This document shows positions 1,809 to 49,338 of a DNA stretch of 64,000 nucleotides, one piece after another. Numbering within the stretch: the first letter of the stretch is position 1; every line of letters begins with the position of its first letter. Location of the stretch: assembly GCA_023245895.1 (NCBI GenBank), contig JAHFJJ010000001.1, positions 7,621-71,620 of the forward strand, in the 5' to 3' direction. The notes below the pieces were generated by a model. That model was not told the origin of the DNA and searched no databases. It saw nothing but the letters and a program-made list of their open reading frames with translations. A program made the translations under genes and the position numbers. The stretch comes from Candidatus Doudnabacteria bacterium (lineage in GTDB: Bacteria; Patescibacteriota; Doudnabacteria; UBA920).

Positions 1809-1836
1809 GTGTAGCGTGCCCATTTATGGGCGATCT
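1809..1836. repeat. REP half-site gtgtagcgtgcccatttatgggcgatct, flanking the RAYT on the left
   Basis: Hairpin gccca-tttat-gggc. The same unit recurs at 3720, 8133, 8781 and 20927. It is the inverted partner of the unit at 2266-2291. Confidence 0.7.
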
Positions 1837-1847
1837 AAGATCTAAAT

Positions 1848-2261
1848 ATGGATGGAAGAAAAAAAATTAGGCTAAAGAATTATGACTACAAAAGTAACGG
1901 CTACTACTTTATTACAGCTGTTTCCAAATTAAGAGAAAATATATTTTTAGGCAAAGAATACTTAGTTGAGGTGGAACTAAAAGACCTGCAAAGTAAAACT
2001 CCCGGAGTAAATCTTGATTATTTCGTAATAATGCCGAACCATATTCATGCTATACTAATTTTACAAAATTGCGATTTGCATTTAGGAGAGATAATTAGAA
2101 GGCTTAAGGCCAAAGTATCGTATAGCTTCGGACAGAACGTTTGGCAAGCCAATTACTACGAGCATGTAATTAGAAATGAGACAGCACTTACAAAAATTAG
2201 AGAATATATCATTAACAATCCGCAAGAGCTTTTATTAAAATTCGATAATTTCTATAAATAA
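1848..2261 (+). CDS. IS200/IS605-family Y1 (HuH) transposase, REP-associated (RAYT-like)
   Basis: HuH motif MPNHIHAIL. A tyrosine-bearing C-terminal segment ANYYEHVIRNE. The 137 aa size is typical of TnpA(IS200). It is flanked at 12-40 nt on each side by inverted REP units. Confidence 0.8.
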   Translation: MDGRKKIRLKNYDYKSNGYYFITAVSKLRENIFLGKEYLVEVELKDLQSKTPGVNLDYFVIMPNHIHAILILQNCDLHLGEIIRRLKAKVSYSFGQNVWQANYYEHVIRNETALTKIREYIINNPQELLLKFDNFYK

Positions 2262-2265: not shown

Positions 2266-2291
2266 GACGCCGATAAATCGGCACGCTACAG
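2266..2291. repeat. REP half-site, right flank of the RAYT
   Basis: gacgccgataaatcggcacgctacag is the near reverse complement of the left unit, with compensating loop changes (cat/gat, ggg/cgg). Confidence 0.7.
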
Positions 2292-2340: not shown

Positions 2341-3723
2341 ATGCCACTATCATCTATCAGTCCCATTGACGGCCGCTACGCCAAACAAACCAAACCGCTG
2401 GTTGAATTTTTCAGCGAACAGGCTTTAATGCGCTACCGCCTTATTGTTGAAGGCGAATATTTAATCGCGCTGTCGGAACTAAAACTCAAGCTTAGGAAAT
2501 TATCTGACAAAGAAAAAAAACTTATCCGCTCCCTTTATAAATTGCCAACAACCGATGCGCAAATTATTTCTGATATTGAACAGAAAGGCTACAAAAATAT
2601 CCCGGCAACCAACCACGACGTAAAAGCCGTGGAATACTTTTTAAAGTTAAAGCTGGAAAAAACTTCCCTAAAAAAAGTCTTGGAATGGGTGCATTTTGGC
2701 TTAACTTCTTACGATATAAATACTCCCGCCCGCGGCATGATGCTGGGCGATGCTTTGGAAGAAGTAATCTTGCCGAAAATTAATTTGGTAATCCAAAATA
2801 TTGAATCGTTAGCGAAAAAACATAAAAGCCTGCCCATGCTTTCGCGCACCCACGGCCAGCCTGCCTCCCCCACCACTTTTGGCAAGGAGATGGCTGTTTT
2901 TTCCACGAGATTAAAAAAACAATTGGCTGTTCTGAAAAATACAAAAATCTCGGTAAAACTCAGCGGCGCCACCGGCAACTTTAACGCCCATGTGGCGGCT
3001 TACCCAAAAGTTGACTGGATAAAATTTGCCAAAAATTTTATTAACAGCGCCAATAAAAACAGAATCCTCAAACTGGAATTAAATTTGCCCACTACCCAAA
3101 TAGACCCGCATGACAGCGAAGCGGAAATTTTTGACTGTTTGCGCCGTATGAACAGCATTTTAATTGGCTTTAACCAGGACATGTGGCGCTACATTAGCGA
3201 CGAGTGGGTTGGCCAAAAAGCCGTAAAAGGCGAAGTCGGCTCCTCTGCCATGCCGCATAAAATCAACCCCATAAATTTTGAAAACAGCGAAGGCAACTTA
3301 GGCCTGGCCAATGCTTTGTTAAACCATTTTTCGATGAAATTGCCAATCTCGCGACTGCAAAGGGATTTATCAGATTCCACAGTAGAAAGAAACTTTGGTT
3401 CAGCCCTGGCTTACAGCCTAATTGCTTACGAAAATTTACTAAAAGGACTGTCCCGAATTGAGGTAAATAAATTTAAGATGGCGCAAGATTTAAAAGCCCA
3501 TCCCGAAGTCATTGCCGAAGCCATTCAAACAGTCTTGCGCAGGGAAGGCGTAAAAATGCCTTACGAAAAACTTAAAGAACTTACTCGCGGCGAAAAAGTT
3601 ACGCTCAATGATATGCATAAGTTTGTTGATGGTTTAGATGTAAGCGATAAAGTTAAAAAAGAGCTAAAAAAGTTTACCCCGGAAAATTATACCGGATTAG
3701 CAAATAAACTGGCCTTGATGTAG
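2341..3723 (+). CDS. purB: Adenylosuccinate lyase
   Basis: Fumarate-lyase family signature GSSAMPHKINPINFENSEGN. N-terminal SPIDGRYA. 460 aa. Confidence 0.9.
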   Translation: MPLSSISPIDGRYAKQTKPLVEFFSEQALMRYRLIVEGEYLIALSELKLKLRKLSDKEKKLIRSLYKLPTTDAQIISDIEQKGYKNIPATNHDVKAVEYFLKLKLEKTSLKKVLEWVHFGLTSYDINTPARGMMLGDALEEVILPKINLVIQNIESLAKKHKSLPMLSRTHGQPASPTTFGKEMAVFSTRLKKQLAVLKNTKISVKLSGATGNFNAHVAAYPKVDWIKFAKNFINSANKNRILKLELNLPTTQIDPHDSEAEIFDCLRRMNSILIGFNQDMWRYISDEWVGQKAVKGEVGSSAMPHKINPINFENSEGNLGLANALLNHFSMKLPISRLQRDLSDSTVERNFGSALAYSLIAYENLLKGLSRIEVNKFKMAQDLKAHPEVIAEAIQTVLRREGVKMPYEKLKELTRGEKVTLNDMHKFVDGLDVSDKVKKELKKFTPENYTGLANKLALM

Positions 3724-3773
3724 CGTGCCCATTTATGGGCGATCTTAGACGCCGATAAATCGGCACGCTACAC
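3720..3773. repeat. REP doublet (two inverted units with a 3-nt spacer) overlapping the purB stop codon
   Basis: gtagcgtgcccatttatgggcgatct-tag-acgccgataaatcggcacgctacac. The TAG stop of purB is the TAG inside the terminal GTAG of the REP. Confidence 0.8.
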
Positions 3774-6072: not shown

Positions 6073-8136
6073 ATGTCTCTACTTTTTGGAAAACTTACAT
6101 TAGCCGCCCTGCCCCACGAATGGTTCACCATCGCGGGAACGGTTTCAATGATGTTAGGCGGCCTTGGCGTTGCGCTTTTTTTGACCTACTACAAGCGCTG
6201 GAAATGGCTGTGGACAGAATGGCTGACATCTACCGACCCTAAAAGAATTGGCATTATGTATTTTGTGGTGGCTTCTTTAATGCTGGCCAGGGGCGCTCTG
6301 GACGCGGGCATGATATGGCTACAGCAGGCGCTTTCAGTGGGCAGCTCCCACGGCTACTTAAGCGCCGACCACTTCCAGCAAATTTTTACGGCCCACGGCG
6401 CAATAATGGTCTTTTTTGTTACCATGGGTTTTTTGTCCGGACTAATTAACTACATAATGCCCCTGCAAATTGGCGCGCGCGACGTGGCATCGCCTTTGCT
6501 TAACACTTTAAGCTTTTGGCTTTACGTTGCCGGCGCGGTTTTAATAAATTTGTTTTTCGTGTTCGGCGGGGAATTCGCGGCAACCGGATGGCTGTCCATT
6601 GCCCCGCTTTCGGGCATTGAGTTTTCCCCCGGCGTAGGCGTGGACTACTGGATATGGAGTTTGCAAATTTCCGGCTTGGGCAGTTTGCTTGCGGGCGTGA
6701 ACTTTATTGTCACCATTTTAAAAATGCGAGCGCCGGGCATGACTTTAATGCGCATGCCAATGTTCGTTTGGACATCCCTCTCCAGCATGGTGCTGGTAGT
6801 TTCTGTTTTTCCAATTTTGGCCATGACTTTAATCCTTTTAACTTTAGACCGCCAATTCGGTACGCATTTTTTTACCTCGGGTTTTGGCGGCAACCCCATG
6901 CTTTATACCAACCTTATTTGGTCGTGGGGGCATCCGGAAGTTTATATTTTAATGATACCCGCCTTTGGCGTTTACTCCGAAGTCGTATCTACCTTTAGCC
7001 AGAAAAAATTATTCAGCTACAAGTCTTTGGTTGTCGCGGCCATTCTAATTACTTTGCTTTCGGTTTTGGTCTGGCTTCATCACTTCTTTACCATGGGCGC
7101 GGGCGCTAATGTTAACGCCTTTTTCGGAATTATGACCGGCGTAATTGCGATTCCAACCGGCGTGCAGGTTTTTACCTGGCTGGCCACAATGTACAAAGGA
7201 AAAATTAACTTTAAACAGCCCATGCTCTGGTTTGTTGGCTTTATCTGCACCTTTACCTTGGGCGGAGTGGCCGGAGTCATGCTTGGAATTCCGGGGATTG
7301 ATTTTCAGGTGCACAACAGCCTGTTTTTGGTTGCCCACTTCCATACCATGGCCATAGGCGGAGCGCTGTTCGGGATTTTTTGCGGCATTACCTACTGGTT
7401 CCCCAAAATTACAGGTTTTATGCTAAACGAACGGCTTGGCAAATACGCCTTCTGGTCTTGGATAGTCGGCTTTTTTGTTTCCTTTATGCCGCTCTACATT
7501 TTAGGTTTTATGGGCGCGCCCAGGAGGCTTGACCACTACGATGCATCGTTGGGCTGGCAATGGTTGTTTATAGTCGCGGGTTTTGGATTTTTAATTATTT
7601 GCTTAGGCGCGGCTTTGCAGGTTTTACAAATTATAGTAAGCGTTATACAAAGAAAAGAAAGTATGGATGTTACCGGAGACCCCTGGAACGGTAGGACTTT
7701 GGAGTGGGCAACGTCTTCTCCTCCCCCTGTTTACAATTTTGCAATTATACCCGAAGTTAGGGATCGCGATGCTTTCTGGGATATGAAACAATACGCTGTC
7801 ATTGCGAGAAGTGCAGCCGACGAAGCAATCTTATCCGAGAGTAGATTGCCGCGCCCCTCGGATGCACTCGGGGCTCGCAATGACACACAAAAAATTACTT
7901 ACAAAGATATAGTGATGCCAAAAAACACCGCCATTGGCATCTACATTTCCGCCTGCACCTTCTTTTTTGGCTTTGCTTTTGTTTGGCACATTTGGTGGCT
8001 GGTTATTGCAAGTGCAATAGGCGCAATCGTATGCTTAATTGTCAGGTCGTTCGATGAAGAAACTGAATATGTTATTACTGCGGTGGAAGTTGAAAAAATA
8101 GAAAGCATAAATAAATCTTCTACGTTCCCGATGTAG
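6073..8136 (+). CDS. cyoB: Cytochrome bo3 ubiquinol oxidase subunit I, with an in-frame palindromic-element insertion near the C-terminus
   Basis: Haem-copper oxidase subunit I with 12 or more TM helices and the motifs WFFGHPEVYI-like (GHPEVYILMIPAFG) and HFHTMAIGG. The C-terminal IVMPKNTAIG...VWHIWWL matches the CyoB tail. An extra segment of about 27 aa is encoded by the repeat at 7798-7886. Confidence 0.9.
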   Translation: MSLLFGKLTLAALPHEWFTIAGTVSMMLGGLGVALFLTYYKRWKWLWTEWLTSTDPKRIGIMYFVVASLMLARGALDAGMIWLQQALSVGSSHGYLSADHFQQIFTAHGAIMVFFVTMGFLSGLINYIMPLQIGARDVASPLLNTLSFWLYVAGAVLINLFFVFGGEFAATGWLSIAPLSGIEFSPGVGVDYWIWSLQISGLGSLLAGVNFIVTILKMRAPGMTLMRMPMFVWTSLSSMVLVVSVFPILAMTLILLTLDRQFGTHFFTSGFGGNPMLYTNLIWSWGHPEVYILMIPAFGVYSEVVSTFSQKKLFSYKSLVVAAILITLLSVLVWLHHFFTMGAGANVNAFFGIMTGVIAIPTGVQVFTWLATMYKGKINFKQPMLWFVGFICTFTLGGVAGVMLGIPGIDFQVHNSLFLVAHFHTMAIGGALFGIFCGITYWFPKITGFMLNERLGKYAFWSWIVGFFVSFMPLYILGFMGAPRRLDHYDASLGWQWLFIVAGFGFLIICLGAALQVLQIIVSVIQRKESMDVTGDPWNGRTLEWATSSPPPVYNFAIIPEVRDRDAFWDMKQYAVIARSAADEAILSESRLPRPSDALGARNDTQKITYKDIVMPKNTAIGIYISACTFFFGFAFVWHIWWLVIASAIGAIVCLIVRSFDEETEYVITAVEVEKIESINKSSTFPM
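7798..7886. repeat. Palindromic element family B (gtcattgcgag...ctcgcaatgac) lying in frame inside cyoB
   Basis: Perfect 11-bp terminal inverted repeat, gtcattgcgag at 7798-7808 against ctcgcaatgac at 7874-7884, with nested internal stems. Near-identical to the intergenic copy at 25249-25324. It translates as AVIARSAADEAILSESRLPRPSDALGARNDT, which has no counterpart in E. coli CyoB. Confidence 0.75.
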
Positions 8137-8186
8137 TTAGCCCATTTATGGGCTGTCTATAACAGCTGATAAATCAGCTAACTACA
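8133..8186. repeat. REP doublet (variant) overlapping the cyoB stop codon
   Basis: gtagttagcccatttatgggctgtct-ataac-agctgataaatcagctaactac. The cyoB TAG stop is the GTAG of the REP. Confidence 0.75.
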
Positions 8187-8198
8187 AAACAACAAACT

Positions 8199-8786
8199 AT
8201 GCAAAAACCTGATTTACAAATAACCCAACACAATGACAGCAAAACCATCCTCGGATTTTGGGTCTATTTAATGACGGACTTAATTATGTTCGCTGTGCTG
8301 TTCGCGACTTACGCCGCGCTTAAAACCAGCACCTTTGGCGGCCCCGGCCCAAGCGAACTTTTCAGCCTAAACGGAGCTCTTGCTGAAACGTTGATATTAC
8401 TTACCAGCAGTTTTACCTGCGGACTGGCTATGCTCGCGGCGCATCGCCAAAATAAAAACCAAACCATTATTTGGTTTCTGGTTACACTGGCTCTTGGCCT
8501 AACTTTCCTTGGCCTGGAATTAAAAGAATTTTCACAGCTTATTGCCGAAGGCCATACCTGGCAAAAAAGCGCGTTCTTGTCATCATTCTTTGCGCTCGTC
8601 AGCACTCACGGTTTGCATATTGCAATTGGCTCGCTTTGGATAGTTGTCGCCATAAAACAAATTTACTCGCGCGGACTTACACCTTTTATTACTTCCAAAC
8701 TCACCCGCCTAAGCCTCTTCTGGCACTTTTTGGATATTGTCTGGATTTTTATTTTTACGATTGTTTATTTAATGGCGAAAGTGTAG
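8199..8786 (+). CDS. cyoC: Cytochrome bo3 ubiquinol oxidase subunit III
   Basis: 195 aa with 5 TM helices. HGLHIAIG and FWHFLDIVWIFIF are typical of subunit III. It sits in the cyoABCDE order. Confidence 0.85.
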   Translation: MQKPDLQITQHNDSKTILGFWVYLMTDLIMFAVLFATYAALKTSTFGGPGPSELFSLNGALAETLILLTSSFTCGLAMLAAHRQNKNQTIIWFLVTLALGLTFLGLELKEFSQLIAEGHTWQKSAFLSSFFALVSTHGLHIAIGSLWIVVAIKQIYSRGLTPFITSKLTRLSLFWHFLDIVWIFIFTIVYLMAKV

Positions 8787-8808
8787 CGTACCGATTTATC
8801 GGCGAACT
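8781..8808. repeat. Single REP unit overlapping the cyoC stop codon
   Basis: gtgtagcgtaccgatttatcggcgaact. The TAG stop of cyoC lies within its GTAG. Confidence 0.7.
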
Positions 8809-8810
8809 AA

Positions 8811-8945
8811 GCAAAACTGCGGAGCCTTCTCCCCTGGCAAGGGGAGATGTCATGAGTGCATCCGAATGACAGAGAGGTCGAAACCGAGGAACACCTCATC
8901 TGTCCCTCAGATGCATTCGGGACATCTTCTCCTCAAGGAGAAGAG
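8811..8945. repeat. Cluster of three hairpins between cyoC and cyoD
   Basis: tctcccctggcaaggggaga, then a degenerate family-B core (gagtgcatccgaatgaca ... gatgcattcgggac), then tcttctcctcaaggagaaga. The ORF-track N-terminal extension of the cyoD ORF (8856) is encoded entirely by these hairpins. Confidence 0.55.
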
Positions 8946-8972
8946 GGTACACAAGGAATTGCAAACAAAAAT

Positions 8973-9311
8973 ATGGCAACATTCAAATCCTACATCACCG
9001 GCTTCATATTCTCCATCGCCTTAACCCTAATGGCCTATTTCGCCGTGGCCAACCACGCGCCTAATATACTGCCAATAATCCTAACCCTTGCCATAATCCA
9101 ACTATTCGTCCAGTTAATATTTTTCCTGCACGTCGGCAAAGGCTCAGACAGAATCTGGAACCTGGTAGTTTTATTTTCCACCGTCGGCATTGTGTTAATT
9201 CTGGTCTTAGGCTCAATTTGGATAATGGGGCATTTAAATTACAACATGACGCCCGGACAAGTACAGGAATTTATTTTAAAAGATGAAAGCTTAATGCCGG
9301 ATATGAAATAA
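8973..9311 (+). CDS. cyoD: Cytochrome bo3 ubiquinol oxidase subunit IV
   Basis: From MATFKSYITGFIFSIALTL it runs to about 113 aa with 3 TM helices, the size of E. coli CyoD. I prefer this start over the track start at 8856, which reads through the hairpin cluster. Confidence 0.6.
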   Translation: MATFKSYITGFIFSIALTLMAYFAVANHAPNILPIILTLAIIQLFVQLIFFLHVGKGSDRIWNLVVLFSTVGIVLILVLGSIWIMGHLNYNMTPGQVQEFILKDESLMPDMK

Positions 9312-9321
9312 CCGCTTATGT

Positions 9322-9424
9322 GTCATTGCGGGGAGTCCCGCCCTTTTTGCATAAAAGGGCGGGACGACGTGGCAATCCCTTACCTCGGATAAAAAGATTG
9401 CTTCGGTGCTACTGGCAATGACAA
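9322..9424. repeat. Composite palindromic element (family B ends, gtcattgc...gcaatgaca) between cyoD and cyoE
   Basis: Terminal inverted repeat tgtcattgc/gcaatgaca. Internal hairpins gtcccgccctttt-tgcat-aaaagggcgggac and gcaatc...gattgc. Confidence 0.65.
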
Positions 9425-9427
9425 AAA

Positions 9428-10318
9428 TTGCTTATGTTCAAAACCTACTACAAATTAGCCAAACCCGGAATTATTTACGGCAATGCCATAAATGCGATTG
9501 CCGGGTTTTTACTTGCCTCGCAGGACGGTTACGATTTTAGACTGTTAATGATAACCCTAATCGGTATTTCCTTGATAGTCGCCTCGGCCTGCGTTTTCAA
9601 CAACATTTGGGACGCGGAGATTGACGCCAAAATGGAACGCACCAAAAACCGCGCCATGGCAGTAAAATCCATAACAAAATCCAACGCGGCTGTTTACGGC
9701 GGCTTGCTTTTCATGCTGGGAGCAACTATTCTCCACTATCACATAAACGATGCCGCGCTCTTTGCCGCGTCTTTTGGTTTTTTAGTTTATGTATTCCTTT
9801 ATACCCCGCTCAAACGCCATACAATTTACGCCACGCAAATTGGCGCGGTTGCGGGAGCCATGCCCGCCGTTGCCGGATACACTGCCATAACGAATAATTT
9901 TGACCTTGGGGCCGGAATATTGTTTTTAATTATAGCCCTCTGGCAAATGCCCCACTTTTACGCCATAGCCATTTACAGGATGGATGAATACGCCGCGGCC
10001 GGTGTCCCCGTCCTTTCGGTTAAAAAAGGCATAAATTTTACCAAAATAAGTACTTTAATTTATTTAATAGCCTTTACTGCTTCTACCAGCTTACTAACGG
10101 TATACGGCTTGACCGGCTACCTTTATTTGGCGGTAATGTTGTTATTAGGCTTAATCTGGCTCTACAAAGGCGTAAAAGGACTTTCCGCCAGAGGCGGATC
10201 CGCCTTTGGCGGAAAAGTTGCTGACGATATTCTGTGGGCAAAAAAGATGTTCCGGTTATCGCTTATTATAATTTTGGCCTTTTGTGTTATAATTCCTATA
10301 GATAAATTTTTCAAATGA
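9428..10318 (+). CDS. cyoE: Protohaem IX farnesyltransferase (haem O synthase), carrying a 28-nt palindrome in frame
   Basis: UbiA-family polyprenyltransferase with about 9 TM helices and NxxxDxxxD (NNIWDAEIDAKMERT). It is the last gene of the cyo operon. Residues SARGGSAFGG are encoded by the palindrome at 10185-10212. Confidence 0.9.
   Translation: MLMFKTYYKLAKPGIIYGNAINAIAGFLLASQDGYDFRLLMITLIGISLIVASACVFNNIWDAEIDAKMERTKNRAMAVKSITKSNAAVYGGLLFMLGATILHYHINDAALFAASFGFLVYVFLYTPLKRHTIYATQIGAVAGAMPAVAGYTAITNNFDLGAGILFLIIALWQMPHFYAIAIYRMDEYAAAGVPVLSVKKGINFTKISTLIYLIAFTASTSLLTVYGLTGYLYLAVMLLLGLIWLYKGVKGLSARGGSAFGGKVADDILWAKKMFRLSLIIILAFCVIIPIDKFFK
10185..10212. repeat. Palindrome ccgccagaggcggatccgcctttggcgg inside the cyoE reading frame
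   Basis: The same 28-nt palindrome occurs intergenically at 10839-10866 as a perfect palindrome, and inside rpoD at 53916-53943. Confidence 0.7.
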
Positions 10319-17250: not shown

Positions 17251-18924
17251 ATGACCAATAGCGCGAGTCCGACAGGCAACGTTATTCTGCTTAACCGTTT
17301 CCAGTTCTGCCACGTTCGCAATAAGAACAACGGCGACATCCTGCTCCACGAGGGTGAGCCGAAACACGGCAAGCGCCTCCAGCTGGAAAGCCATGAAGAA
17401 GTGGTGGGAGTCTGGGAAAAAATCCGGGTGCCCGACCATAAGTACGCCGTAGTCCTCAACCCTTTCAGCGCCGCGACAGGTGACATTATTCCGGGCGACC
17501 GTGAAATCCGCCCCGGGCCGGCGGAATTCTCCCTGCATCCCGGGGAGGCCTTAGAAGGCATTGAAGATGAGATAGTTTTGGCCGACGACGAGGGGCTGCT
17601 GCTTAGGGCGGAAAAAGATTCTCCGCATCCCCTGGCCGGCGAGCAATCTTTTCCCGCCGAAGCCATGCTAAAAGCGGGCCAGGAAATCCTGATTAAAGGA
17701 GAGCGGCGGTACATTCCGCACAAACACATTCGGATAAAAGAAAAAAGGAAGTCCATACCGCTCTCGTCCAAAAACGGGAAGTATGTCCAAAACAGCGACA
17801 CGGGCAAAGTCCGGCTGGTCCGCGGCGAATGCGACTTGTTTTTGGAGCACAACGAATCGCTTTGGAACAAAACCTTGACCCGCGAGGAGGCACAAGCATT
17901 GGGCTACGAAGAACAAACCACGCCAAACCAAAGCCGCGTGCTGGTAGCTGAACCCCGCCAGCGCAAGGACCTATCCGACGCCATTGTGGTTGACCTTGAA
18001 GCCAACGAAGCCATTGCCATTTACAACGGCAATACCGAGCGGGTGGTATTCGGCCCCGATGCCGTTTTCCTGGAACCGCACGAGCGGCCAAAGGTACTGT
18101 TTATTTCCGGAGGCGTGCCGGTCAGGCCCAACGCGCTGAGGATTGCCATCCTCAAAATGGGTCCGGATTTTATTCACGACCAGCTTACAGTAAGAACCAA
18201 AGACAACGCGACGTTGGCCATAGACGTCAACTTCCGCTGGCGCTTCCAAATTGACCGCGAGCATCCGTACAGGCTGTTCGCCCTCAAAGACTTTGTGGGC
18301 TTTGTGGCCCAAACCTTGTCTTCGGAAATCCGCGAGGAAGCTGCCAAACACACCTTTGAGGACTTCCACTCCAAGGCCGCGGAACTGGTAAAGCAAACTT
18401 TGTTCAACGGCCAAAGCAGCCGCCTGTTCACGGAAAACGGCCTGGAAATTTTTGGCATTGACGTGGAAGGCATTGTGCCTGAAGACCCGGAAATCAAAAA
18501 GAAACTGGCCGATGCCATCAAGACCAACGTGGACATTTACACGCAACGCGTAAAGGAGGAGGCTGAACTGGAAAGCGCCCGCCGGCTAATTGACGGCCGG
18601 GAAAAAAACGAGAAAGCAAGGCAAAACTTAATTACCCTGGAAATTGCCAATAGCCGCACGCTGACTATTGAACAGGCAAAAATTAAGGGTGAAGCTGCGG
18701 TTGCCTTTGCCGAATCCGAAGCCCAAGCCGTGGAAATCCGGACCAAAGCCGAACGGGAAGCCGAGATACTGAGGCTAAAAGACCTTACCGGCATTTTGTC
18801 GGGAGACGGCGGCAAGGCCTACATTGAACTGGAACGGGCCAGGGCATTGCGCGAAACCGACAAGGTGGTAGTTCCAACCGATTCCAAGCTGGTTTTAGGG
18901 CTGGAAAAATACCTGAACGAATAA
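17251..18924 (+). CDS. Major vault protein (MVP) homolog, a shortened bacterial version: about three MVP repeats, the shoulder domain and part of the cap helix
   Basis: Collinear similarity to eukaryotic MVP, written as window sequence / human MVP. MVP repeats 7-9: HKYAVVLNPF / HNYCVILDPV; DEGLLLRAEK / QQGLLLRALQ; KNGKYVQNSDTGKVRLVRG / NEGIYVQDVKTGKVRAVIG. Shoulder domain: VVFGPDAVFLEPHERPKVLFISGGVPVRPNALRIAILKMGPDF / [43 protein letters not shown], and DFVGFVAQTLSSEIREEAAKHTFEDFHSKAAELVKQTLF / [39 protein letters not shown]. A coiled-coil cap-helix region follows. The human sequence is quoted from memory. Confidence 0.75.
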   Translation: MTNSASPTGNVILLNRFQFCHVRNKNNGDILLHEGEPKHGKRLQLESHEEVVGVWEKIRVPDHKYAVVLNPFSAATGDIIPGDREIRPGPAEFSLHPGEALEGIEDEIVLADDEGLLLRAEKDSPHPLAGEQSFPAEAMLKAGQEILIKGERRYIPHKHIRIKEKRKSIPLSSKNGKYVQNSDTGKVRLVRGECDLFLEHNESLWNKTLTREEAQALGYEEQTTPNQSRVLVAEPRQRKDLSDAIVVDLEANEAIAIYNGNTERVVFGPDAVFLEPHERPKVLFISGGVPVRPNALRIAILKMGPDFIHDQLTVRTKDNATLAIDVNFRWRFQIDREHPYRLFALKDFVGFVAQTLSSEIREEAAKHTFEDFHSKAAELVKQTLFNGQSSRLFTENGLEIFGIDVEGIVPEDPEIKKKLADAIKTNVDIYTQRVKEEAELESARRLIDGREKNEKARQNLITLEIANSRTLTIEQAKIKGEAAVAFAESEAQAVEIRTKAEREAEILRLKDLTGILSGDGGKAYIELERARALRETDKVVVPTDSKLVLGLEKYLNE

Positions 18925-24762: not shown

Positions 24763-25242
24763 ATGAAAAAAACCTCAACAATATTTCTTCAGGTAGTCAT
24801 TGTGGCTCTTGGCATTGTTGCGCTTGCCCTTTTGCTTTGGGAACCTCAAATCGAGGGCAGGAACGCGCATGCTACGCTCTTTGAGATTTACTTTAAAGAT
24901 CCATTTCTGGCTCTTGTCTACATAGGGTCTATTCCTTTTTTCATAGCACTCTACCAAGCATTCAAGTTGCTGGGGTACGTAAGGCAAAATAAGACATTCT
25001 CCCAGGCAACTGTAAAAGCTCTGCGTACTATAAAATATTGCGCGCTGGCTATAATTGGTTTTGTTGTGGTAGAAGAAATTTTTATTATGCTCAACCATGG
25101 TAGTGATGATCCTGCAGGCGGGGTTTTTATGGGTGTTCTCATTACCTTCGGTTCAATCGTCATTGCCACCGCGGCGGCGATGTTTCAACGGATTTTGCAA
25201 AATGCCGTGGAAATAAAATCGGAAAACGATTTAACAGTTTAG
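24763..25242 (+). CDS. DUF2975-family membrane protein, the partner of a YozG-like HTH regulator
   Basis: 159 aa with 4 TM helices. The typical pairing has a small XRE HTH gene immediately downstream. Confidence 0.6.
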   Translation: MKKTSTIFLQVVIVALGIVALALLLWEPQIEGRNAHATLFEIYFKDPFLALVYIGSIPFFIALYQAFKLLGYVRQNKTFSQATVKALRTIKYCALAIIGFVVVEEIFIMLNHGSDDPAGGVFMGVLITFGSIVIATAAAMFQRILQNAVEIKSENDLTV

Positions 25243-25248
25243 TAACAT

Positions 25249-25324
25249 GTCATTGCGAGGAGTGCAGCCGACGAAGCAATCTTATCTAAGGAAAAGATCG
25301 CTTCGGATGCACTCGCGATGACAT
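25249..25324. repeat. Palindromic element family B, the intergenic copy
   Basis: gtcattgcgaggagtgcagccgacgaagcaatcttatc...gatcgcttcggatgcactcgcgatgacat. Roughly 90 % identical to the copy inside cyoB. Confidence 0.75.
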
Positions 25325-31441: not shown

Positions 31442-32530
31442 ATGATACGATATAAGTACTTAAATGATACGAAAATGACTACTATATCAACAAAACAGCA
31501 AACTATTATAGGTATCTTCCTTGAAAAAGGAGGTATACAATCATCCGATGTCTATGAAGAAGTCACCAAACTTGGAGAAAAAACTTCACTAGTAACGGTA
31601 AAAAGGATGCTGTCTGAAATGGCCAGTGAAGGTATTTTGGAAGTTTCCGGCTCCGGAAGGTCAACCGGCTATCATATTAGTCCTAAAGGTCGAGTGTTTG
31701 CCGAAATAAATTCCAAAGAATATATTTCTGCGGAACCTGATAAGCGGTTTGGCTTAAGCCGTTATAATTTTGACTTGTTGTCATCCATTCCCGAGGAGAT
31801 TTTTACAGATGAAGAATTAAAACGATTGAAAAACGCTACTATTGAATATGAAAAAAGAATAACGGACTTGCCAGCGGCAATCCAAAAAAAAGAAATGGAA
31901 CGGCTGATCATTGAGCTATCTTGGAAATCATCACGGATAGAAGGCAATACCTATACTCTCTTGGATACCGAGAAGTTGATTCTGGAAAACAAGGAAGCAC
32001 CTGGTCATAGTAAAAAAGAAGCGCAAATGATACTCAACCATAAAGATGCTTTTAACTACATTCACAAAAACTCCGCCCAATTTAAAACTTTGACCCGAAA
32101 AAATCTTGAAGAACTACACGCTATCTTGGTGAAAGATTTAAGTGTGGGACTGGGACTGCGAAAAAAACCGGTGGGAGTTACAGGTTCCAAATATTTACCC
32201 TTGGATAATATCCACCAGATTACAGAAGCAGTGGAAAACCTTTCGGCCACTGTAACGCGTATAACCACTCCTTATGCCAAGGCCTTGGTTGCCTTATTGG
32301 GTATTAGTTATATCCAACCGTTTGAAGACGGCAACAAAAGGACATCCCGGCTTATGGCTAATGCCTTACTTCTTTCCCATTCCCTTGCCCCGCTTTCGTA
32401 TAGGAGTGTTGATGAAAATGAATACCGCGAAGCCGTGTTGGTATTTTATGAATTGAATTCTCTTGTACCGATGAAAAAAATATTCATCAATCAATATGAG
32501 TTTGCTACCCAAAATTACGCGGTAAAATAA
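31442..32530 (+). CDS. Fic/Doc-family protein with a non-canonical motif (QPFEDGNKRTSR)
   Basis: N-terminal winged-helix-like region plus a Fic core. The motif position reads QPFEDGNKR. Canonical Fic is HPFx(D/E)GNGR and Doc is HxFx(D/N)(A/G)NKR, so it is Doc-like (NKR) with the catalytic His replaced by Gln. Confidence 0.7.
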   Translation: MIRYKYLNDTKMTTISTKQQTIIGIFLEKGGIQSSDVYEEVTKLGEKTSLVTVKRMLSEMASEGILEVSGSGRSTGYHISPKGRVFAEINSKEYISAEPDKRFGLSRYNFDLLSSIPEEIFTDEELKRLKNATIEYEKRITDLPAAIQKKEMERLIIELSWKSSRIEGNTYTLLDTEKLILENKEAPGHSKKEAQMILNHKDAFNYIHKNSAQFKTLTRKNLEELHAILVKDLSVGLGLRKKPVGVTGSKYLPLDNIHQITEAVENLSATVTRITTPYAKALVALLGISYIQPFEDGNKRTSRLMANALLLSHSLAPLSYRSVDENEYREAVLVFYELNSLVPMKKIFINQYEFATQNYAVK

Positions 32531-32531
32531 A

Positions 32532-34703
32532 TTAAATCTTTACAAGTTTGTTATAATAGCGTTTCCGCTGTTTAAATTGCCTTTCAAGAAAGGCGATTTT
32601 TTTGTCTTCGTAATCAATAATGGTTTTTTGGTTATTCTTGCCTCGCATGCGGCCAATATATTGGATTAGTTTTCCTTCAAAAGAAAATGGAAAAGCAATT
32701 ATCAAACAGTCAATGCTTGGGATGTCCAGCCCTTCACCAAAAAATTGGCCAGTTGAAAGAATTGCTTGGTAATGGCCGGTTTGGATTTGTTTCAGTTTGA
32801 TTGTTCGTTTGGCGTTGGAATCCTCACCTGATATGGTAATAGTTTCGCATAGGCCTTTGAGATAAAGACTTAAAATTTCCAAGTGATCACGTCGTTCCGA
32901 CAAAAACAAGACTTTTTTGCCTTGGCTGGTTTGTTCCTGAATGTCTTTGACTATCATCTGGTTGCGGTTAGTATCAAAACAAATAAGTTTGGCCAAGAGT
33001 TGAAAGTTGTCAGTGGTGAACTTGAAAGGAACTTCCAGGTTGGTTTCTCGGACAATGATTTGCGTGTTGACTGATTTGTAAGCTGCCGCAGCCGTTTCAG
33101 CTATTATTTCCAGTGCATACTCCATTTGGGCGATGATGTCTCCAATGAACATATAAATTAAGGGCTCATCGTTATGCTTCCGCTTGGGCGTAGCAGTAAG
33201 GCCATAAATGTATTTGGGATTAAGCTGGCTGATAACCTCGCGGAAAGTCTTGGCAGGAATATGGTGACATTCATCTACAATTATCGTACCGAATTTGTTT
33301 TGCAGTTCGGCAAAATTGCCAATTCGTACTAAAGTTTGCATCATGGCTATTGTAATTTCCTCGCCGGTCTTTTTCTTAACAGAATAGTATTGCCCAATGT
33401 CCTTTTTAGGAATTCCCAAAAACGATTGCGTACGTTCAACCCATTGGTCAAGCAATTGCTTGCGATGAACTAAAATTAAGGCCGGCAGTTTTCTTTTGGC
33501 GATAACCTCCAGACCTATTATAGTTTTGCCACTACCGGAAGGTGCGACAATAACGCCGCTATCAGCTTCCAAGGCCTTTGCTACAATCGGCTTCTGCTCA
33601 GGTAAGAGCTTAATGTTGCTCGTAAACTTTACCTCCGGTATTTGCGGTCGTTGGTCTTTAATTTGATAAGCAATTCGGTTATCATGCAAAAAAGAAATTA
33701 GCTGATTTAAAAATCCCCGCGGCAATAAAACATCATCGCCATCTTCCTCAAGCAATTTAAAGAACTTTTGGACTTTGTGAACGGATTTGCCTAACCGTTT
33801 CTTGGTTAAGTATTCCGTGCTAATAAAATTGAGCTTTTCTTTCAAAAAATGGATAAGCTGAGGGGTGAGCTCAGAGCGATTTAAAATAATTTTGCTGTTT
33901 AAAGTTAATCTGACCGATGAAACACCTAACGCTTCCGACACAAAGCTAACGGGCTTGTTAAATACGTTTGAATAAGCTGTTTCAAGTTCCACACCTGTGT
34001 GCTTATATATCGTTTGCAAAAAAGCCCATTGATCGGGATAGGGCTTAAAAGTTTCAGGATCTAAAAATAACGTATTGCTTAGCCGAACAGCTTGGCCTTG
34101 CAGAGGAATGGCAATAAGGTTACCAAACCCCTCTTTGGCTAAACTGTCTTGGTTTGGAAAAAGTCTGTCAAAGCTGACTTCCTTATCAAATTCCGAAAGT
34201 TTTAACACCCGGCGGATTATTTCCAAAATTATTTGTCGGCTCTTATAGCAAGGGTATGGGCTTCCAAAAAATATCCAAACATGCCCGCCGTTGCCTGAAC
34301 GGGATCGTTCAAGATAGGGGTGGAGGCCAACCTTTAGGCATTCGTCAATAAAATTTTTGCAATCCTGTTGCCAAGTACTGCCGTCAAAATCAGCGGCGAT
34401 AAAATACGAAGTATTATCTTGCAGAATTGGGTAAATACCAATAGCACTTGCACCAATTAAATGTTTTCTAACAATATCCGGTGTTAAGGGTATTAATTTT
34501 TTATCTTTAAAGTCCTTGAAGGCCCCACCCTTAAGTTTAAAATTATTGTAAGCTGTCCAATTGACGTCGTAAGCCGGACTATAGTTGCCTTGGCCATTCT
34601 TCTCCCAGTACTTGGCATACACATCTGTTCTGCCGCGAAAGAGCGACTGGTATAAATTCAGCTGTTCTTCAGTAATACTCTGTATCATATATTTAAATTC
34701 CAA
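32532..34703 (-). CDS. PrimPol (archaeo-eukaryotic primase-like) domain fused to an SF2 DExH helicase
   Basis: N-terminal AEP motifs: FIAADFDGSTW (the DxD motif) and SRSGNGGHVWIFF (sGxGxH). C-terminal helicase motifs: VIVAPSGSGKT (Walker A), IIVDECHH (motif II), GLTATP (III), LDIPSIDCLI (V) and QYIGRMRG (VI). 723 aa. Confidence 0.7.
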   Translation of the reverse strand: MEFKYMIQSITEEQLNLYQSLFRGRTDVYAKYWEKNGQGNYSPAYDVNWTAYNNFKLKGGAFKDFKDKKLIPLTPDIVRKHLIGASAIGIYPILQDNTSYFIAADFDGSTWQQDCKNFIDECLKVGLHPYLERSRSGNGGHVWIFFGSPYPCYKSRQIILEIIRRVLKLSEFDKEVSFDRLFPNQDSLAKEGFGNLIAIPLQGQAVRLSNTLFLDPETFKPYPDQWAFLQTIYKHTGVELETAYSNVFNKPVSFVSEALGVSSVRLTLNSKIILNRSELTPQLIHFLKEKLNFISTEYLTKKRLGKSVHKVQKFFKLLEEDGDDVLLPRGFLNQLISFLHDNRIAYQIKDQRPQIPEVKFTSNIKLLPEQKPIVAKALEADSGVIVAPSGSGKTIIGLEVIAKRKLPALILVHRKQLLDQWVERTQSFLGIPKKDIGQYYSVKKKTGEEITIAMMQTLVRIGNFAELQNKFGTIIVDECHHIPAKTFREVISQLNPKYIYGLTATPKRKHNDEPLIYMFIGDIIAQMEYALEIIAETAAAAYKSVNTQIIVRETNLEVPFKFTTDNFQLLAKLICFDTNRNQMIVKDIQEQTSQGKKVLFLSERRDHLEILSLYLKGLCETITISGEDSNAKRTIKLKQIQTGHYQAILSTGQFFGEGLDIPSIDCLIIAFPFSFEGKLIQYIGRMRGKNNQKTIIDYEDKKIAFLERQFKQRKRYYNKLVKI

Positions 34704-35556
34704 AACAATTTACGGCTTCATCCTTAAACCAATTTATAAATTGGGACATACTATCATGGGCTATTAAATCTTTGGCGTCGAAAGTAAAGAGTTGTCCGTA
34801 CCTAGAGAAATAAATTGCAAGTTTGTTTACCTCGCATTTGCCAGGGGTATCCCCAATGCCACCAATTTTATGCAGTAAATAATAACCGGCTAACTGATGA
34901 AGCATTGGTCTGTCAAATTTTAAGTATTTCGTTGTTTTGATGTCAATCAGGATATCGTCGACGAGCAAATCAGCATCCGCGCCGCCGACTAAATTAGAAG
35001 CATGTCCAAAAGTAGGATTAAGCAAACATATGTTTTTTGCGGCAAATATCTCTGGCTTAACCAAATGGATTAAATTTTCAAGATCGGTTACATCTCCCTG
35101 ATCAACAACGCCAAAGTTCCGATCAAGTCGGCCTTCCCTATAAATTTTATCAAGCTGGGCAAGGAGGATGGCGCTCTTAATGATTCCTTTTGTAATCTGG
35201 CCTGATTTAAGATAATCAGCATAAAGTTGTTTGGCCTCATTTAGAATTGCCAATCCTTTATTGTAAGTTTTTTCATACCAAGAGCGACCAAAAATGGAAT
35301 ATGATGTTCCCCATCCAAAGGTTTCGGGAATCTGCTTTACTGCCTGTTCGGCAACCCAGGTTTTAATTATAGCGTTTGGGTTTAAGCGCTTTAAATAGAA
35401 CCGCAGCAGATAATCAAAAGCCGTGCCGACCAGCATATAGTTTTGGGTAAGCGGAGGGGCTAGCAAAGCAGTTTGACAATTGAAATCCGGCAACATGAAT
35501 GTTTCCTGAAATTTTTCCCGCACCTGCTTTACTTTAATGAATGAAGTAAGGCTCAT
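34693..35556 (-). CDS. PD-(D/E)xK nuclease-like hypothetical protein, upstream of and overlapping the PrimPol-helicase
   Basis: GGADADLLVDDILIDIKTTKY fits the D...(D/E)xK restriction-endonuclease-fold motif. Weakly supported. Confidence 0.4.
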   Translation of the reverse strand: MSLTSFIKVKQVREKFQETFMLPDFNCQTALLAPPLTQNYMLVGTAFDYLLRFYLKRLNPNAIIKTWVAEQAVKQIPETFGWGTSYSIFGRSWYEKTYNKGLAILNEAKQLYADYLKSGQITKGIIKSAILLAQLDKIYREGRLDRNFGVVDQGDVTDLENLIHLVKPEIFAAKNICLLNPTFGHASNLVGGADADLLVDDILIDIKTTKYLKFDRPMLHQLAGYYLLHKIGGIGDTPGKCEVNKLAIYFSRYGQLFTFDAKDLIAHDSMSQFINWFKDEAVNCFGI

Positions 35557-35718
35557 TAAGGTATTTTAGCCTAAATAAAGCGGTTTATGCAAAAGGCCCA
35601 TTCCGCTATTTTTTGTTTTTTTATACAGGGTTTATTTTTTGTGGTATAATAAAAGCACTTAGTTTGCCTGAGCAAAACAAAACCAAAAATTTAATCTGCT
35701 TAAGCCACACTCTTCTAT

Positions 35719-35907
35719 ATGGAACCCCTAAGAGAAAATTTTTTAAAGACTTACGCCAATACCCCTATTAACTTGCGAGGAGATATAATTTTGGTTTTGG
35801 ATAAATTGGGACCGGTTAGTTGGAACGCGGCCTATATTGAAGTTGAACAAAAGTCAGAAATATCGGAAACAATTTTAAAAGAACTTAAGGCCCTGGATTT
35901 AATTTAA
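35719..35907 (+). CDS. Small hypothetical protein, 62 aa
   Basis: ORF only. Confidence 0.25.
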   Translation: MEPLRENFLKTYANTPINLRGDIILVLDKLGPVSWNAAYIEVEQKSEISETILKELKALDLI

Positions 35908-35911
35908 AACT

Positions 35912-36160
35912 ATGCAAAAAGAAACTCAAGAAAACTTGAAAAAAGAACGCGAGTTAGTTATAGCGCGTTTAGAAGTTATGTCGCCGGAATTGCATTTTTC
36001 CAGCGGTCATAGTTTTCAAAATTTCTCCAGGGACGAAATTATTGCCCAAATTAAGGAAGGTACCAATGTTGGAGCAGAGTTTGTTAAAACAGAAATGGAA
36101 TTCTTAAGAGCCTTAAAAGACGGTAAGTTACTAAAAAGTTTAATACCTGATCAAACATAG
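35912..36160 (+). CDS. Small hypothetical protein, 82 aa
   Basis: ORF only, in a tightly spaced co-directional series. Confidence 0.25.
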   Translation: MQKETQENLKKERELVIARLEVMSPELHFSSGHSFQNFSRDEIIAQIKEGTNVGAEFVKTEMEFLRALKDGKLLKSLIPDQT

Positions 36161-36814: not shown

Positions 36815-36838
36815 TTTAACTCATTTCAAAACAGGCTC

Positions 36839-38257: not shown

Positions 38258-38290
38258 CAGTCGATTGCTCTACCGTTGAGCTACTCCCGA
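38216..38290 (-). tRNA. tRNA-Asn (anticodon GTT), CCA encoded
   Basis: The cloverleaf reads out by hand: acceptor tcgggag/ctcccga, D-arm gctc-aacggta-gagc, anticodon stem atcga/tcgat with loop ctGTTaa, T-arm ctggg-ttcgaat-cccag, discriminator G then CCA. 75 nt. Confidence 0.85.
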
Positions 38291-40065: not shown

Positions 40066-40150
40066 AAAAACAAAAACCGAACAAACATTTGTCCGGTTTC
40101 GCCATTGGCCTCCCCGCAGCTTTAAGGCGACCATATAATAAGCTGCGGAT
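40066..40150 (-). ncRNA. Conserved structured element, copy A: hairpin with conserved loop ATTATaTGGTCGCCTTA plus palindrome ccgGacaaatgtttgttcgg
   Basis: A second copy sits at 44333-44458. Loop and palindrome are conserved between copies, while the flanking stem differs with compensatory changes (gcagctt/aagctgc against ctgaaagtt/aactttcag). Confidence 0.4.
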
Positions 40151-40167
40151 TTAGGGCTTACAGAATA

Positions 40168-47823: not shown

Positions 47824-49338
47824 CTAAATTGAATTTAAGTCAACCGTCTCATCAATCCGAATTTGCGAAACAAAATCAGGAATATGGGAGACCATTAACA
47901 TTGCGCCTTGGTATTCGTCCAATGCTTTGGCGATGATGGGAAGATGGCGGAAGTTTATGTGGTTGGTGGGTTCATCTAATATCAGCAACCCCGGTTTCAT
48001 TAAGACTAACCTGCAAAAAGATAGTAACCCTTTTTGCCCTTCGGACAAAGCGGCAATCGGATGGTCTAAAAGTTTGCCGTCGATTAAAAAGCCCGCAGCG
48101 GTGGCGCGTAAATGGTGCTCGTCAAACTTTTCCATAACTTCTTTTAGCGCGTCAAAGGCTTTTTGTTCAAAGTCAAAATTGCTGAAGTCCTGTTTGTAGT
48201 AGCCTATTTTTATGCCTTTGGCGATTGCGAAACCATCAGAAGTTAAGGGATTCCTCGGCTCGGATGCACTCGCCTCGGAATGACGGGGAAAGGTGGAAGC
48301 GATTTTTTCAAGTAAAGTTGATTTGCCAATGCCATTAGGTCCGCTGATGATGATATGGGTATTTTTGCGGACGACCAACTCCAGCTCTTTTGTTATCGGC
48401 TGATGATTTTTGAGCGCCGATATTGAATTGAATTCCATTATCTTTCCGTCAAAAAATTTATCAAACTCCTGGCAAGGCATAACAAATTCGCGGATGGTTC
48501 TGTCTTCCTGCCTAACTTCCACAATATTTTCCTCGGCTTCTTCCGCCGCCTCGCGCATGCGTTTGGCAACCGCGCGAAGCTTGCCGCCTTTGTGGGCAAA
48601 AACTTCCGCCTGGCTTCGCTTTTCTTTAATTTCCATTTGCATACGCGCGTTCTGCAAATTTTCTCTCTCTATTCGATTTTTAATTTCTTCAACTACATCG
48701 TAATAGTTGCCGGAATACTGTTCAACCTTATGAGTAAAGACATCTAAATACAAAACGCCGTCAGAAAAAGCGTTTAAAAAATCCGCGTCGTGGGAAATTA
48801 CAATTACGGTTTTTTCATACATCATTAAAAAACCGGTTAAATGCTCTATGCCCTGCTGGTCTAAATTGTTGGTGGGCTCGTCCAGCAAAAGAATGTCGGG
48901 ATTTTGGATTAAAGCGTGCGCCAAAAGCAACCTAGCCTGCTGTCCGCCCGATAAAGCTTTTACCTGCCTGTCCAAAGGCAAATCCACATTTACAACCTCA
49001 AAAACATCTTTAATCAGCTTGTCCAAATTATATTTCTTTTCCGTAAACGCCGTGGCAAAATAATCCCTGACGGTTAATTCCAAAACATCCAAAGGCATAA
49101 CCTGGCGCGCAATGGCAATACTGGCATCCCTTGGCGTGCGGTGAACATCTCCCGATGTCGGCTTAAGCTCGCCGGTTATCATTTTAAAAAGGGAAGATTT
49201 CCCCGCGCCGTTCTGTCCCATTAAAGTTATCCGGCTTCCGGTGCGCACGGAAAAACTCGCCTCATCTAAAATGTGCTTATTATGGCCGTATTCAAAACTG
49301 ACATCGGAAAATCTAAGTATGACGCTGTCGTTTGGCAT
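47824..49338 (-). CDS. ABC-F family ATPase (two ABC domains, no TM region), carrying a partial family-B palindromic element in frame
   Basis: Two Walker A motifs (GQNGAGKSSL; GPNGIGKSTL), two ABC signature motifs (LSGGQQ; LSEGQK) and D-loops. 504 aa. Residues FPRHSEASASEPRNPLTSD are encoded by 48252-48287, which matches the family-B core tcggatgcactcg. Confidence 0.85.
   Translation of the reverse strand: MPNDSVILRFSDVSFEYGHNKHILDEASFSVRTGSRITLMGQNGAGKSSLFKMITGELKPTSGDVHRTPRDASIAIARQVMPLDVLELTVRDYFATAFTEKKYNLDKLIKDVFEVVNVDLPLDRQVKALSGGQQARLLLAHALIQNPDILLLDEPTNNLDQQGIEHLTGFLMMYEKTVIVISHDADFLNAFSDGVLYLDVFTHKVEQYSGNYYDVVEEIKNRIERENLQNARMQMEIKEKRSQAEVFAHKGGKLRAVAKRMREAAEEAEENIVEVRQEDRTIREFVMPCQEFDKFFDGKIMEFNSISALKNHQPITKELELVVRKNTHIIISGPNGIGKSTLLEKIASTFPRHSEASASEPRNPLTSDGFAIAKGIKIGYYKQDFSNFDFEQKAFDALKEVMEKFDEHHLRATAAGFLIDGKLLDHPIAALSEGQKGLLSFCRLVLMKPGLLILDEPTNHINFRHLPIIAKALDEYQGAMLMVSHIPDFVSQIRIDETVDLNSI
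48252..48287. repeat. Partial family-B palindromic element inside the ABC-F ORF
   Basis: cctcggctcggatgcactcgcctcggaatgacg compared with the family-B right half cttcggatgcactcgcgatgaca. Confidence 0.55.

Follow-up and report, generated by a model that had tools for sequence, protein, structure and literature searches.

A palindromic doublet read in frame within cyoB on a Doudnabacteria-labelled contig is probably a copy of a REP-like repeat family

The quinol oxidase gene cyoB on contig JAHFJJ010000001.1, from an assembly labelled Candidatus Doudnabacteria, contains an 89-nt palindrome that leaves the reading frame open. The question raised by this locus is what kind of element can reside within the coding sequence of a respiratory enzyme, and how it is maintained there. 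The element was studied in a 64,000-nucleotide stretch of the contig, called the window hereafter, on which all coordinates are given. The first-pass annotation of the window had interpreted it as a selfish palindrome akin to the Rickettsia palindromic elements (RPEs), inserted in frame in cyoB and in a gene encoding an ABC-F ATPase, and this core reading is supported by the analysis presented here. With a probability of about 0.72, the cyoB element is a copy of a non-autonomous family of selfish palindromes resembling RPEs and REPINs (hairpin-forming doublets of repetitive extragenic palindromic, or REP, sequences), closest to the superfamily of CGTC-tagged REPs, its peptide being a passenger.

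Results

The insert in CyoB

The open reading frame (ORF) 6073-8136 is uninterrupted and encodes 687 residues, in agreement with the earlier statement that the frame is not broken. The product was identified as CyoB by its match to the E. coli cytochrome bo3 subunit I chains 8f68_A and 1fft_A (E = 4e-250) and by the CyoB invariant residues that it has in common with 54 homologues. Profile matches designate the neighbouring genes as cyoA, cyoC, cyoD and cyoE. When the protein is aligned with E. coli CyoB, a gap opens at FWDMKQY(574) and the alignment picks up at YKDIVMPKN(610), the linker comprising 35 residues in the window protein and 9 in E. coli. The insert is thus located in the linker where it had been placed, although it measures 29 codons rather than about 27. 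From GTC to GAC, it consists of 87 nt (residues 576-604) and, because no stop codon occurs in the frame used, it would be translated into about 29 extra residues. The peptide, VIARSAADEAILSESRLPRPSDALGARND, is rich in Ala, Ser and Asp, and the predicted tryptic peptides spanning its junctions are SAADEAILSESR and LPRPSDALGAR. Three of the six reading frames of the doublet are open. The ends of the element leave two of three frames open in either orientation and block the remaining one because it reads TGA.

An AlphaFold model of CyoB, built with 55 homologues, has a mean pLDDT (predicted local distance difference test) of 75 and a pTM (predicted template modelling score) of 0.82. The pLDDT falls below 50 at residues 579-606 and is about 90 for the next two transmembrane helices (621-638 and 641-659). 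It is proposed that the insert forms an extra loose loop at the start of a hypervariable linker that follows transmembrane helix XII, which would leave the core of the oxidase intact. The linker should be cytoplasmic, since that is the side on which helix XII terminates in heme-copper oxidases.

A doublet of tagged hairpin units

In the sequence itself, GTCATTGCGAG occupies 7798-7808 and is matched by a perfect reverse complement at 7874-7884. A further pair, T7797 with A7885, lengthens the inverted repeat to 12 bp, so that the element extends over 7797-7885. The length of 89 nt and the perfect inverted ends reported previously are therefore confirmed, with boundaries shifted by one base (7798-7886 had been given) and ends 12 instead of 11 bp long. 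With up to one mismatch, the 11-mer GTCATTGCGAG occurs eight times in the window for 0.66 expected, a number reached by none of 100 shuffled sequences. The RNA of the element region is predicted to fold into one long hairpin (-43 kcal/mol, z = -5.3).

The cyoB element is a doublet, consisting of two hairpin units that are inverted, with their tags outward, and separated by an 11-nt spacer. The family unit, about 30-45 nt long, comprises a (T/C)GTC tag, a stem whose first bases are AT, the 12-nt loop GAGTGCATCCGA, the matching stem and a tail with C as its first base. The exact loop motif is present in the right unit of the cyoB copy, at 7858-7869. Statistics were collected on 160 units across all the DNA that was fetched. 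The tag is TGTC in 136 of them and CGTC in 20; within the window, the doublets have TGTC and the ABC-F unit has CGTC. The stem is usually ATTGC/GCAAT, ATTGC being followed by GCAAT in 126 of 132 units, and the variant stems ATCGC, ATTCC, ATCCC and ATCCT are met by their exact complement in 17 of 20 units. In the stem pairs ATTGC/GCAAT, ATCGC/GCGAT, ATTCC/GGAAT and ATCCC/GGGAT, the first two positions are complementary A-T pairs. The matching of stem variants by a complementary change indicates that the hairpin of the unit is maintained. The constant stem measures 5 bp, with an extension to about 9-14 bp in some subfamilies, and the 12-mer of the loop is conserved among unrelated genes and genomes. 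The tail nearly always begins with C (CTT in 60 units, CTC in 35, CCC in 19, CTA in 18 and CCA in 3).

Other copies in the window

A search of the window with an nhmmer profile of the unit returned three doublets and one single unit, together with one or two mini-copies (Table 1). The intergenic doublet had been called near-identical to the cyoB copy, which holds for its left half, where 38 of 39 nt match; the right arm is shorter. Its right unit has the compensated stem ATCGC/GCGAT. The composite copy announced between cyoD and cyoE was found. Its left unit is split by a nested GC-rich hairpin at about 9333-9367 (GGAGTCCCGCCC..GGGCGGGAC), of which no second copy was found within the 64 kb. 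The ABC-F copy is in frame, as stated earlier, with the peptide PRHSEASASEPRNP; it is not a half-copy but a complete single unit. The host ORFs of both in-frame copies are intact, contrary to what would be expected of frameshifted pseudogenes.

The longest ORF for cyoD (8856-9311) starts with GTG 8856 inside the mini-copy of the cyoC-cyoD spacer, but no match to the CyoD profile is obtained before residue 41. Translation probably begins at ATG 8973, which gives a spacer of 186 nt filled with repeats.

Table 1. Positions of the repeats, their host genes and the RAYT-like gene in the window
Feature	Coordinates	Strand	Details
cyoB, cytochrome bo3-type quinol oxidase subunit I, host of the element	6073..8136	+	intact 687-aa ORF; structure-chain match; invariant residues
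Palindromic doublet in cyoB, 89 nt, 12-bp perfect terminal inverted repeats	7797..7885	.	in-frame reading (A)VIARSAADEAILSESRLPRPSDALGARND(T)
Left unit of the cyoB doublet	7797..7831	+	TGTC, ATTGC, loop AAGTGCAGCCGA, GCAAT, C tail; nhmmer 39.2 bits, E = 3.9e-11
Right unit of the cyoB doublet	7843..7885	-	TGTC, ATTGC-GAG-CCCC, loop GAGTGCATCCGA, GGGG-CGCG-GCAAT, C tail; nhmmer 39.2 bits
Mini-copy, cyoC-cyoD spacer	8848..8871	.	TGTCAT-GAGTGCATCCGA-ATGACA; nhmmer partial match, E = 0.003
Related mini-hairpin, cyoC-cyoD spacer, weak membership	8901..8924	.	TGTCCC-TCAGATGCATTC-GGGACA; loop motif with 2 mismatches
Composite doublet, cyoD-cyoE gap	9321..9424	.	ends TGTCATTGCGGG and CTGGCAATGACA, one mismatch each
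Intergenic doublet, 76 nt	25248..25323	.	directly past the stop codon of ORF 24763-25242; nhmmer units 43.4 + 22.6 bits
ABC-F family ATPase gene, host of the single unit	47824..49338	-	NF000355, 321 bits, below the curated cutoff of 380; ORF intact
Single unit inside the ABC-F gene	48248..48288	-	CGTC-ATTCCGAGGC-GAGTGCATCCGA-GCCGAGGAAT-CCC; nhmmer 34.3 bits
RAYT-like Y1/IS200-like transposase gene	1848..2261		PF01797, E = 2.9e-6

Occurrence of the insert in relatives

The lengths of the CyoB linker and of the ABC-F loop were compared in the 120 best homologues of each protein. The CyoB linker has 16-25 residues in most of them. The ABC-F orthologues are 80-87% identical to the window protein (73-88% for the 120 best homologues), and the loop that extends from the second Walker A motif to IGYYKQ has exactly 20 residues in 94 of the 120, versus 36 in the window. 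Most orthologues are thus devoid of insert. The cyoB insert is not private to this genome, since members of the family are inserted at this very codon in no fewer than five further CyoB genes (those of proteins P0001, P0008, P0009 and P0010, and that of the metagenome contig L165). At the position of the insert, P0001, P0008, P0009 and P0010/11 have a segment of the type AVIA(R)S...RND, which ends with ...RNS in P0009. The corresponding DNA (L081, L082/83, L084 and L087) carries the nucleotide palindrome in each case, so that no carrier was found to have kept the protein segment without it. Both 12-nt ends are identical to those of the window copy in three of these four lineages, and the copy of L087 is visibly decayed. 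In the cyoB gene of P0003 (L086), at a distance of about one codon, the element belongs to a sister subfamily (TGTC-ATCCCGG...) that shares the loop. In a scan of a genome collection, the CyoB relatives were all at most 71% identical and none had the paired ends.

In the ABC-F gene of P0136 (L085), a full doublet is found at the site that is occupied in the window ABC-F gene. Its right half, of about 41 nt, is identical to that of the window cyoB copy and to that of the L081 cyoB copy, which indicates that this subfamily entered different genes in different genomes. On the basis of these comparisons, the family appears to be mobile on an evolutionary scale.

Other inserts, seemingly unrelated, were seen in the CyoB linker and the ABC-F loop of P0047, P0051-P0053, P0137, P0004, P0039, P0054 and P0104. 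They include peptides of the FAKATAGK/AEATKDK type, a 49-residue linker (P0004), a tandem duplication (P0039), and short remnants such as ..RFARND or ..SPRND. Both the CyoB linker and the ABC-F loop behave as general insertion sinks.

The named homologues of CyoB and ABC-F are mostly metagenome-assembled genomes that their submitters labelled Patescibacteria group, Candidatus Doudnabacteria, Saccharimonadales or Parcubacteria; other submitter labels are Limnocylindria (two) and Gammaproteobacteria (one). Saccharibacteria with a cytochrome bo oxidase have reportedly been described.

Distribution in metagenomes

The JGI metagenomes were scanned with the pattern GTCATTGCGAG-N(0-6)-AGTGCATCCGA, which yielded 95 stretches with an exact unit, 80 of which underlie the counts made at the level of loci. 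Inverted dimers with outward tags make up 57 of 84 matches. Among 56 unique doublets, 27 lie within a long ORF, extending for at least 40 codons beyond each side. The usual peptide of the family is VIARSASDEAIS..KKIAS.ALAMT. Seven hosts were checked with NCBIfam, namely acetate-CoA ligase, LeuRS, ATP synthase gamma, GatB, CarA, UvrC and RNase HII, and for most of them the family match is split in two by the insert. PurL, PurQ, RecJ, a UvrD-like helicase, RsmI, PrmC, an O-antigen ligase and a threonine-dehydrogenase-like enzyme were recognised as hosts by eye only. Related repeats are present twice in frame, at distinct positions, in the ATP synthase gamma gene of L137 and likewise in the threonine-dehydrogenase-like gene of L152. 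The resemblance between copies that sit in unrelated genes of different genomes (about 90%, L120 versus L153) is as high as that between copies at orthologous sites.

An exhaustive phmmer search with the 32-residue window peptide brought up a single genuine additional host, the tRNA-dihydrouridine synthase P0255, with HVIARSASDEAISSKNGLPRPSDAFGARND. The remaining phmmer matches, two low-complexity false positives and the window's own fragment, were discarded. No match was obtained in a protein homology search with a concatenated 60-residue peptide query, nor by BLAST of the element against plasmids, and Rfam run in E-value mode on 7600-9600 returned chance matches only.

Insertion signature and conservation

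The first-pass annotation had suggested looking for target-site duplications. None of 2-5 nt was detected in 55 unique doublets with five definitions of the boundaries, the matches being at or near chance level. This argues against a MITE (miniature inverted-repeat transposable element) of the DDE type and fits REP- or REPIN-like elements. In the flanks of the doublets, only weak biases were seen, towards T at -2 and towards C or G at -1, with a run rich in A downstream. The length of the doublets, from T to A inclusive, is of the class 3n+1 in 19 of the 27 that lie in ORFs and in 7 of the 29 that lie outside (Fisher p = 0.0011), an excess that is the signature of a frame filter.

The cyoB genes of the window and of L081 have 74.6% nucleotide identity, and 52.8% at third positions, whereas their elements are 88.5% identical. 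The 10 nucleotide differences between the two elements amount to six non-synonymous and two synonymous codon changes. Nine of them concern positions that are unpaired in the predicted fold (spacer and unit loops), and one is in the inner stem. As the changes are mostly non-synonymous and unpaired, it is the nucleic acid that is conserved, not the peptide.

A neighbour-joining tree of CyoB was calculated with the linker masked, and bootstrapped. The window protein and P0001 are each nearer to the element-free P0002 than to each other. The distribution of the carriers is patchy, and their sharing of one codon is therefore not mirrored by the gene tree.

A second repeat family and its transposase

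The window contains a RAYT-like gene (RAYT, REP-associated tyrosine transposase; Table 1). Inverted copies of a GTAG-tagged REP, GTAGCGTGCCsATTTATsGGC, border it on either side, at 1811-1831 (+) and 2269-2289 (-), and six copies of this REP are present in the window. Since the gene is bordered by GTAG REPs and not by TGTC units, it forms the REPtron of another repeat family. An inverted pair of GTAG REPs lies just past purB (3720-3771), and single ones cover the stop codons of cyoB (8133-8153, GTAGTTAGCCCATTTATGGGC, 3 mismatches) and cyoC (8783-8803). In the cyo operon, repeats of the two families are thus found at nearly every gene junction. A small palindrome, TCCCC-N6-GGGGA, adjoins a GTAG REP at both 2293-2309 and 8830-8845; two such sites are about the level expected by chance.

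Further features of the window

A c-di-GMP-II-GAG riboswitch was recognised at 40082-40170 (-), with 44.8 bits for a gathering score of 40. It abuts the 3' end of a GAF-PAS-GGDEF-EAL ORF of the same strand (40168-42480) and overlaps its stop codon, and its regulated target therefore lies below 40082. A possible integrated island (31442-38290) adjoins a tRNA-Asn (38216-38290); it encodes a Fic protein, a TOTE-type AEP primase-helicase (PF22548, E = 3e-77), a serine recombinase, and two ORFs without family match. An ORF of a kind unusual in bacteria, 17251-18924, combines the shoulder and repeat domains of the major vault protein with a Band 7 domain (PF11978, E = 1.4e-25).

Discussion

The doublet of two inverted, tagged hairpin units corresponds to the architecture of a REPIN. 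If the cyoB element is a selfish palindrome of this kind, constraint would act on the nucleotide hairpin, the peptide being carried along. In-frame copies may result from survivorship, having been retained only where they preserve the frame, are free of stop codons and fall in a permissive loop. As to mobilisation, the architecture hints weakly at the transposition of a single-stranded hairpin by an HUH/Y1 (RAYT-like) enzyme acting in trans, which would fit the lack of target-site duplications, the tagged hairpin unit and the doublet form. REP/REPIN elements are known to move in this way.

A number of observations weigh against this interpretation. No RAYT was found beside TGTC units; the only Y1/RAYT gene of the window belongs to the GTAG REP, no RAYT homologue was found in any other fetched locus, and no transposase or other enzyme could be linked to the TGTC family. 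The host genome, of which 64 kb were seen, bears no sign of recent movement. The window cyoB copy, with 89 nt (3n+2), belongs to the minority length class, and the translation of its insert is deduced from the open frame. Between the window and L081, 26 of the 29 third positions of the element are identical, compared with 52.8% gene-wide (P = 2.7e-5). Such conservation above that of the host synonymous sites could be due to a recognition structure under constraint, to homogenisation by other copies, or to the element being young. The CyoB tree unites P0010 with P0094 and P0110, both element-free (99% bootstrap), and P0008 with four element-free proteins (90% bootstrap). From these groupings, the scattered occupancy would need repeated gain at the same site or repeated clean loss, neither of which is predicted by simple selfish insertion followed by neutral decay. 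Three options can be considered: the element was gained repeatedly at a preferred site, it was cleanly lost several times, or lineages exchanged it. The sliding-window identity around the cyoB insert is not raised in the flanks, which leaves a recombination tract without support, and the flank motif is so weak that a strong target preference is not evident.

The conservation could alternatively reflect a benefit to the cell. The hairpins would then be host-selected nucleic-acid elements and the in-frame copy a functional cis element, for example an mRNA-stabilising or -processing structure, a translation pause before transmembrane helices XIII-XIV, or a site for a DNA-structuring protein in the cyo operon. 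The conservation above host synonymous sites, the stems kept through compensatory changes, the 12-nt loop common to unrelated genes and genomes, and the occupancy of one cyoB codon in several relatives would all be accounted for, as would the presence inside the cyo operon of four or five of the six or seven window members together with two GTAG REPs. However, dozens of unrelated genes, as well as intergenic DNA, contain the same sequence, the majority of CyoB and ABC-F orthologues manage without it, and decay is visible in some copies (L087 cyoB, the mini-copies and L113). Moreover, conservation of loop and stem is equally expected of the recognition site of a mobilising enzyme, and selection by the host is considered distinctly unlikely. 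The same-codon occupancy could also suggest an ancient, vertically inherited expansion of the CyoB linker that merely resembles a repeat. This is hardly credible, as every relative examined has the nucleotide palindrome, near-identical sequences are found in other genes and between genes, and the changes in the element are mostly non-synonymous. An assembly artefact or a pseudogene is no more plausible, given that the element recurs in independent assemblies from JGI, ENA, NCBI and Logan, that the ORF is intact, and that the exact 687-residue protein is recorded in NCBI and ENA.

The perfect terminal inverted repeats, the small size, the TG..CA termini and the many copies are also what would be expected of a classical MITE, that is, an internally deleted derivative of an insertion sequence (IS) with a DDE transposase, mobilised through its 12-bp terminal inverted repeats (TG...CA). 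To this must be opposed, besides the lack of target-site duplications reported above, the existence of single units that stand alone and the nature of the conserved entity, which is the tagged hairpin unit with its loop and extends beyond the ends. About 1.9 Mb of fetched loci contained no IS with these ends. A classical MITE is therefore very improbable, and the REP- or REPIN-like character of the element is preferred.

The selfish-palindrome reading could be taken further. It is possible, if rather unlikely, that the tagged hairpins constitute a long-lived and mostly vertically transmitted population of replicators that resides largely inside essential genes of bacteria akin to the Candidate Phyla Radiation (CPR). 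Orthologous codons would be held, with the ends and the 12-nt loop under nucleotide-level constraint or continual homogenisation, and the hairpins would be served by an enzyme that recognises the loop, or would have been co-opted as structural or regulatory signals. If so, residence in frame would be a stable lifestyle and not an occasional accident.

The family can be compared with several known systems. RPEs are palindromes found in frame in unrelated housekeeping genes of Rickettsia, where they are translated (Ogata et al. 2000, 2002; summarised in PMC10969869). The repeats studied here likewise are repeated palindromes in frame, with extra peptides compatible with the fold of the host; they also occur between genes, decay, and have no known transposase. 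They differ from RPEs in their hosts, whose relatives are labelled Patescibacteria/CPR rather than Rickettsia, in their length (about 70-127 nt for the window family versus about 100-150 bp), in the conserved 12-nt loop of the unit, and apparently in sequence.

The resemblance is closest with the CGTC-tagged REP superfamily, which includes RPE-4 and RPE-6 of R. conorii and dRS3 of Neisseria (Di Nocera et al. 2013, PMC3733652). In both, the tag is CGTC or, often, TGTC, the stems begin with A-T and a short tail starts with C; both are mostly inverted dimers, have no linked transposase, and are found in ORFs as single (S) or dimer (D) units. The peptides, VI... to ...ND or ...MT, are also similar to the listed VIPAKAGI and ..SRFRGND. 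In contrast, the published stem is 8-9 bp with a loop of 4-5 nt, whereas the constant stem is 5 bp and the loop 12 nt here; the published tail is CCA and here mostly CTT, CTC or CCC; and the phyla listed in PMC3733652 do not include CPR-like bacteria. Dozens of in-frame copies, single or dimeric, are given in the supplement of that paper for proteins of known identity from Rickettsia, Sphingomonas, Sphingopyxis, Rhodopseudomonas, Erythrobacter and Coxiella, and in-frame repeats are also listed for Pseudomonas, Thauera and others. The notion that in-frame palindromic repeats are documented mainly in Rickettsia, as put forward in the first-pass annotation, is thus too narrow.

REPINs (Bertels and Rainey 2011, PMC3116915; PMC3337134) share with the cyoB element the two inverted units joined by a short spacer into one long hairpin, the lack of target-site duplications, and long persistence with vertical inheritance. 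They are formed by GTAG-type REPs that also flank a single-copy RAYT, whereas none was found to accompany the TGTC units, and they are described as extragenic. Bacterial MITEs such as QMITE1/2 of Coxiella, ERIC and Correia (PMC10969869) are similarly small and non-autonomous, with inverted ends, a stable hairpin in the transcript and occasional in-frame fusions, but they have target-site duplications and a parent IS, neither of which was seen here.

The literature search yielded no paper linking such repeats to Patescibacteria/CPR, and queries with the end sequences or with the peptide brought up nothing but primer noise. The cyoB element is best filed as a new family near the CGTC-tagged REPs, of the known kind of in-frame palindromic repeats; the phenomenon itself is not new. 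The novelty lies in the host group, in how many core genes are affected, and in the puzzling coincidence of same-site occupancy and high nucleotide conservation.

Selfish DNA inside coding genes, previously best known from Rickettsia, with tagged REPs catalogued in several phyla, is thereby extended to another uncultured group, with relatives labelled Patescibacteria (Doudnabacteria, Saccharimonadales). The family is well defined, and its in-frame hosts include the core proteins CyoB, ABC-F, LeuRS, GatB, ATP synthase gamma, UvrC, CarA, PurL and RecJ. Conserved proteins are made longer by such inserts, which can lead annotation, alignment and structure prediction astray in these lineages. The occupancy of the same codon in discordance with the gene tree, together with conservation above that of synonymous sites, makes the cyoB element a test case for the persistence and movement of tagged palindromes.

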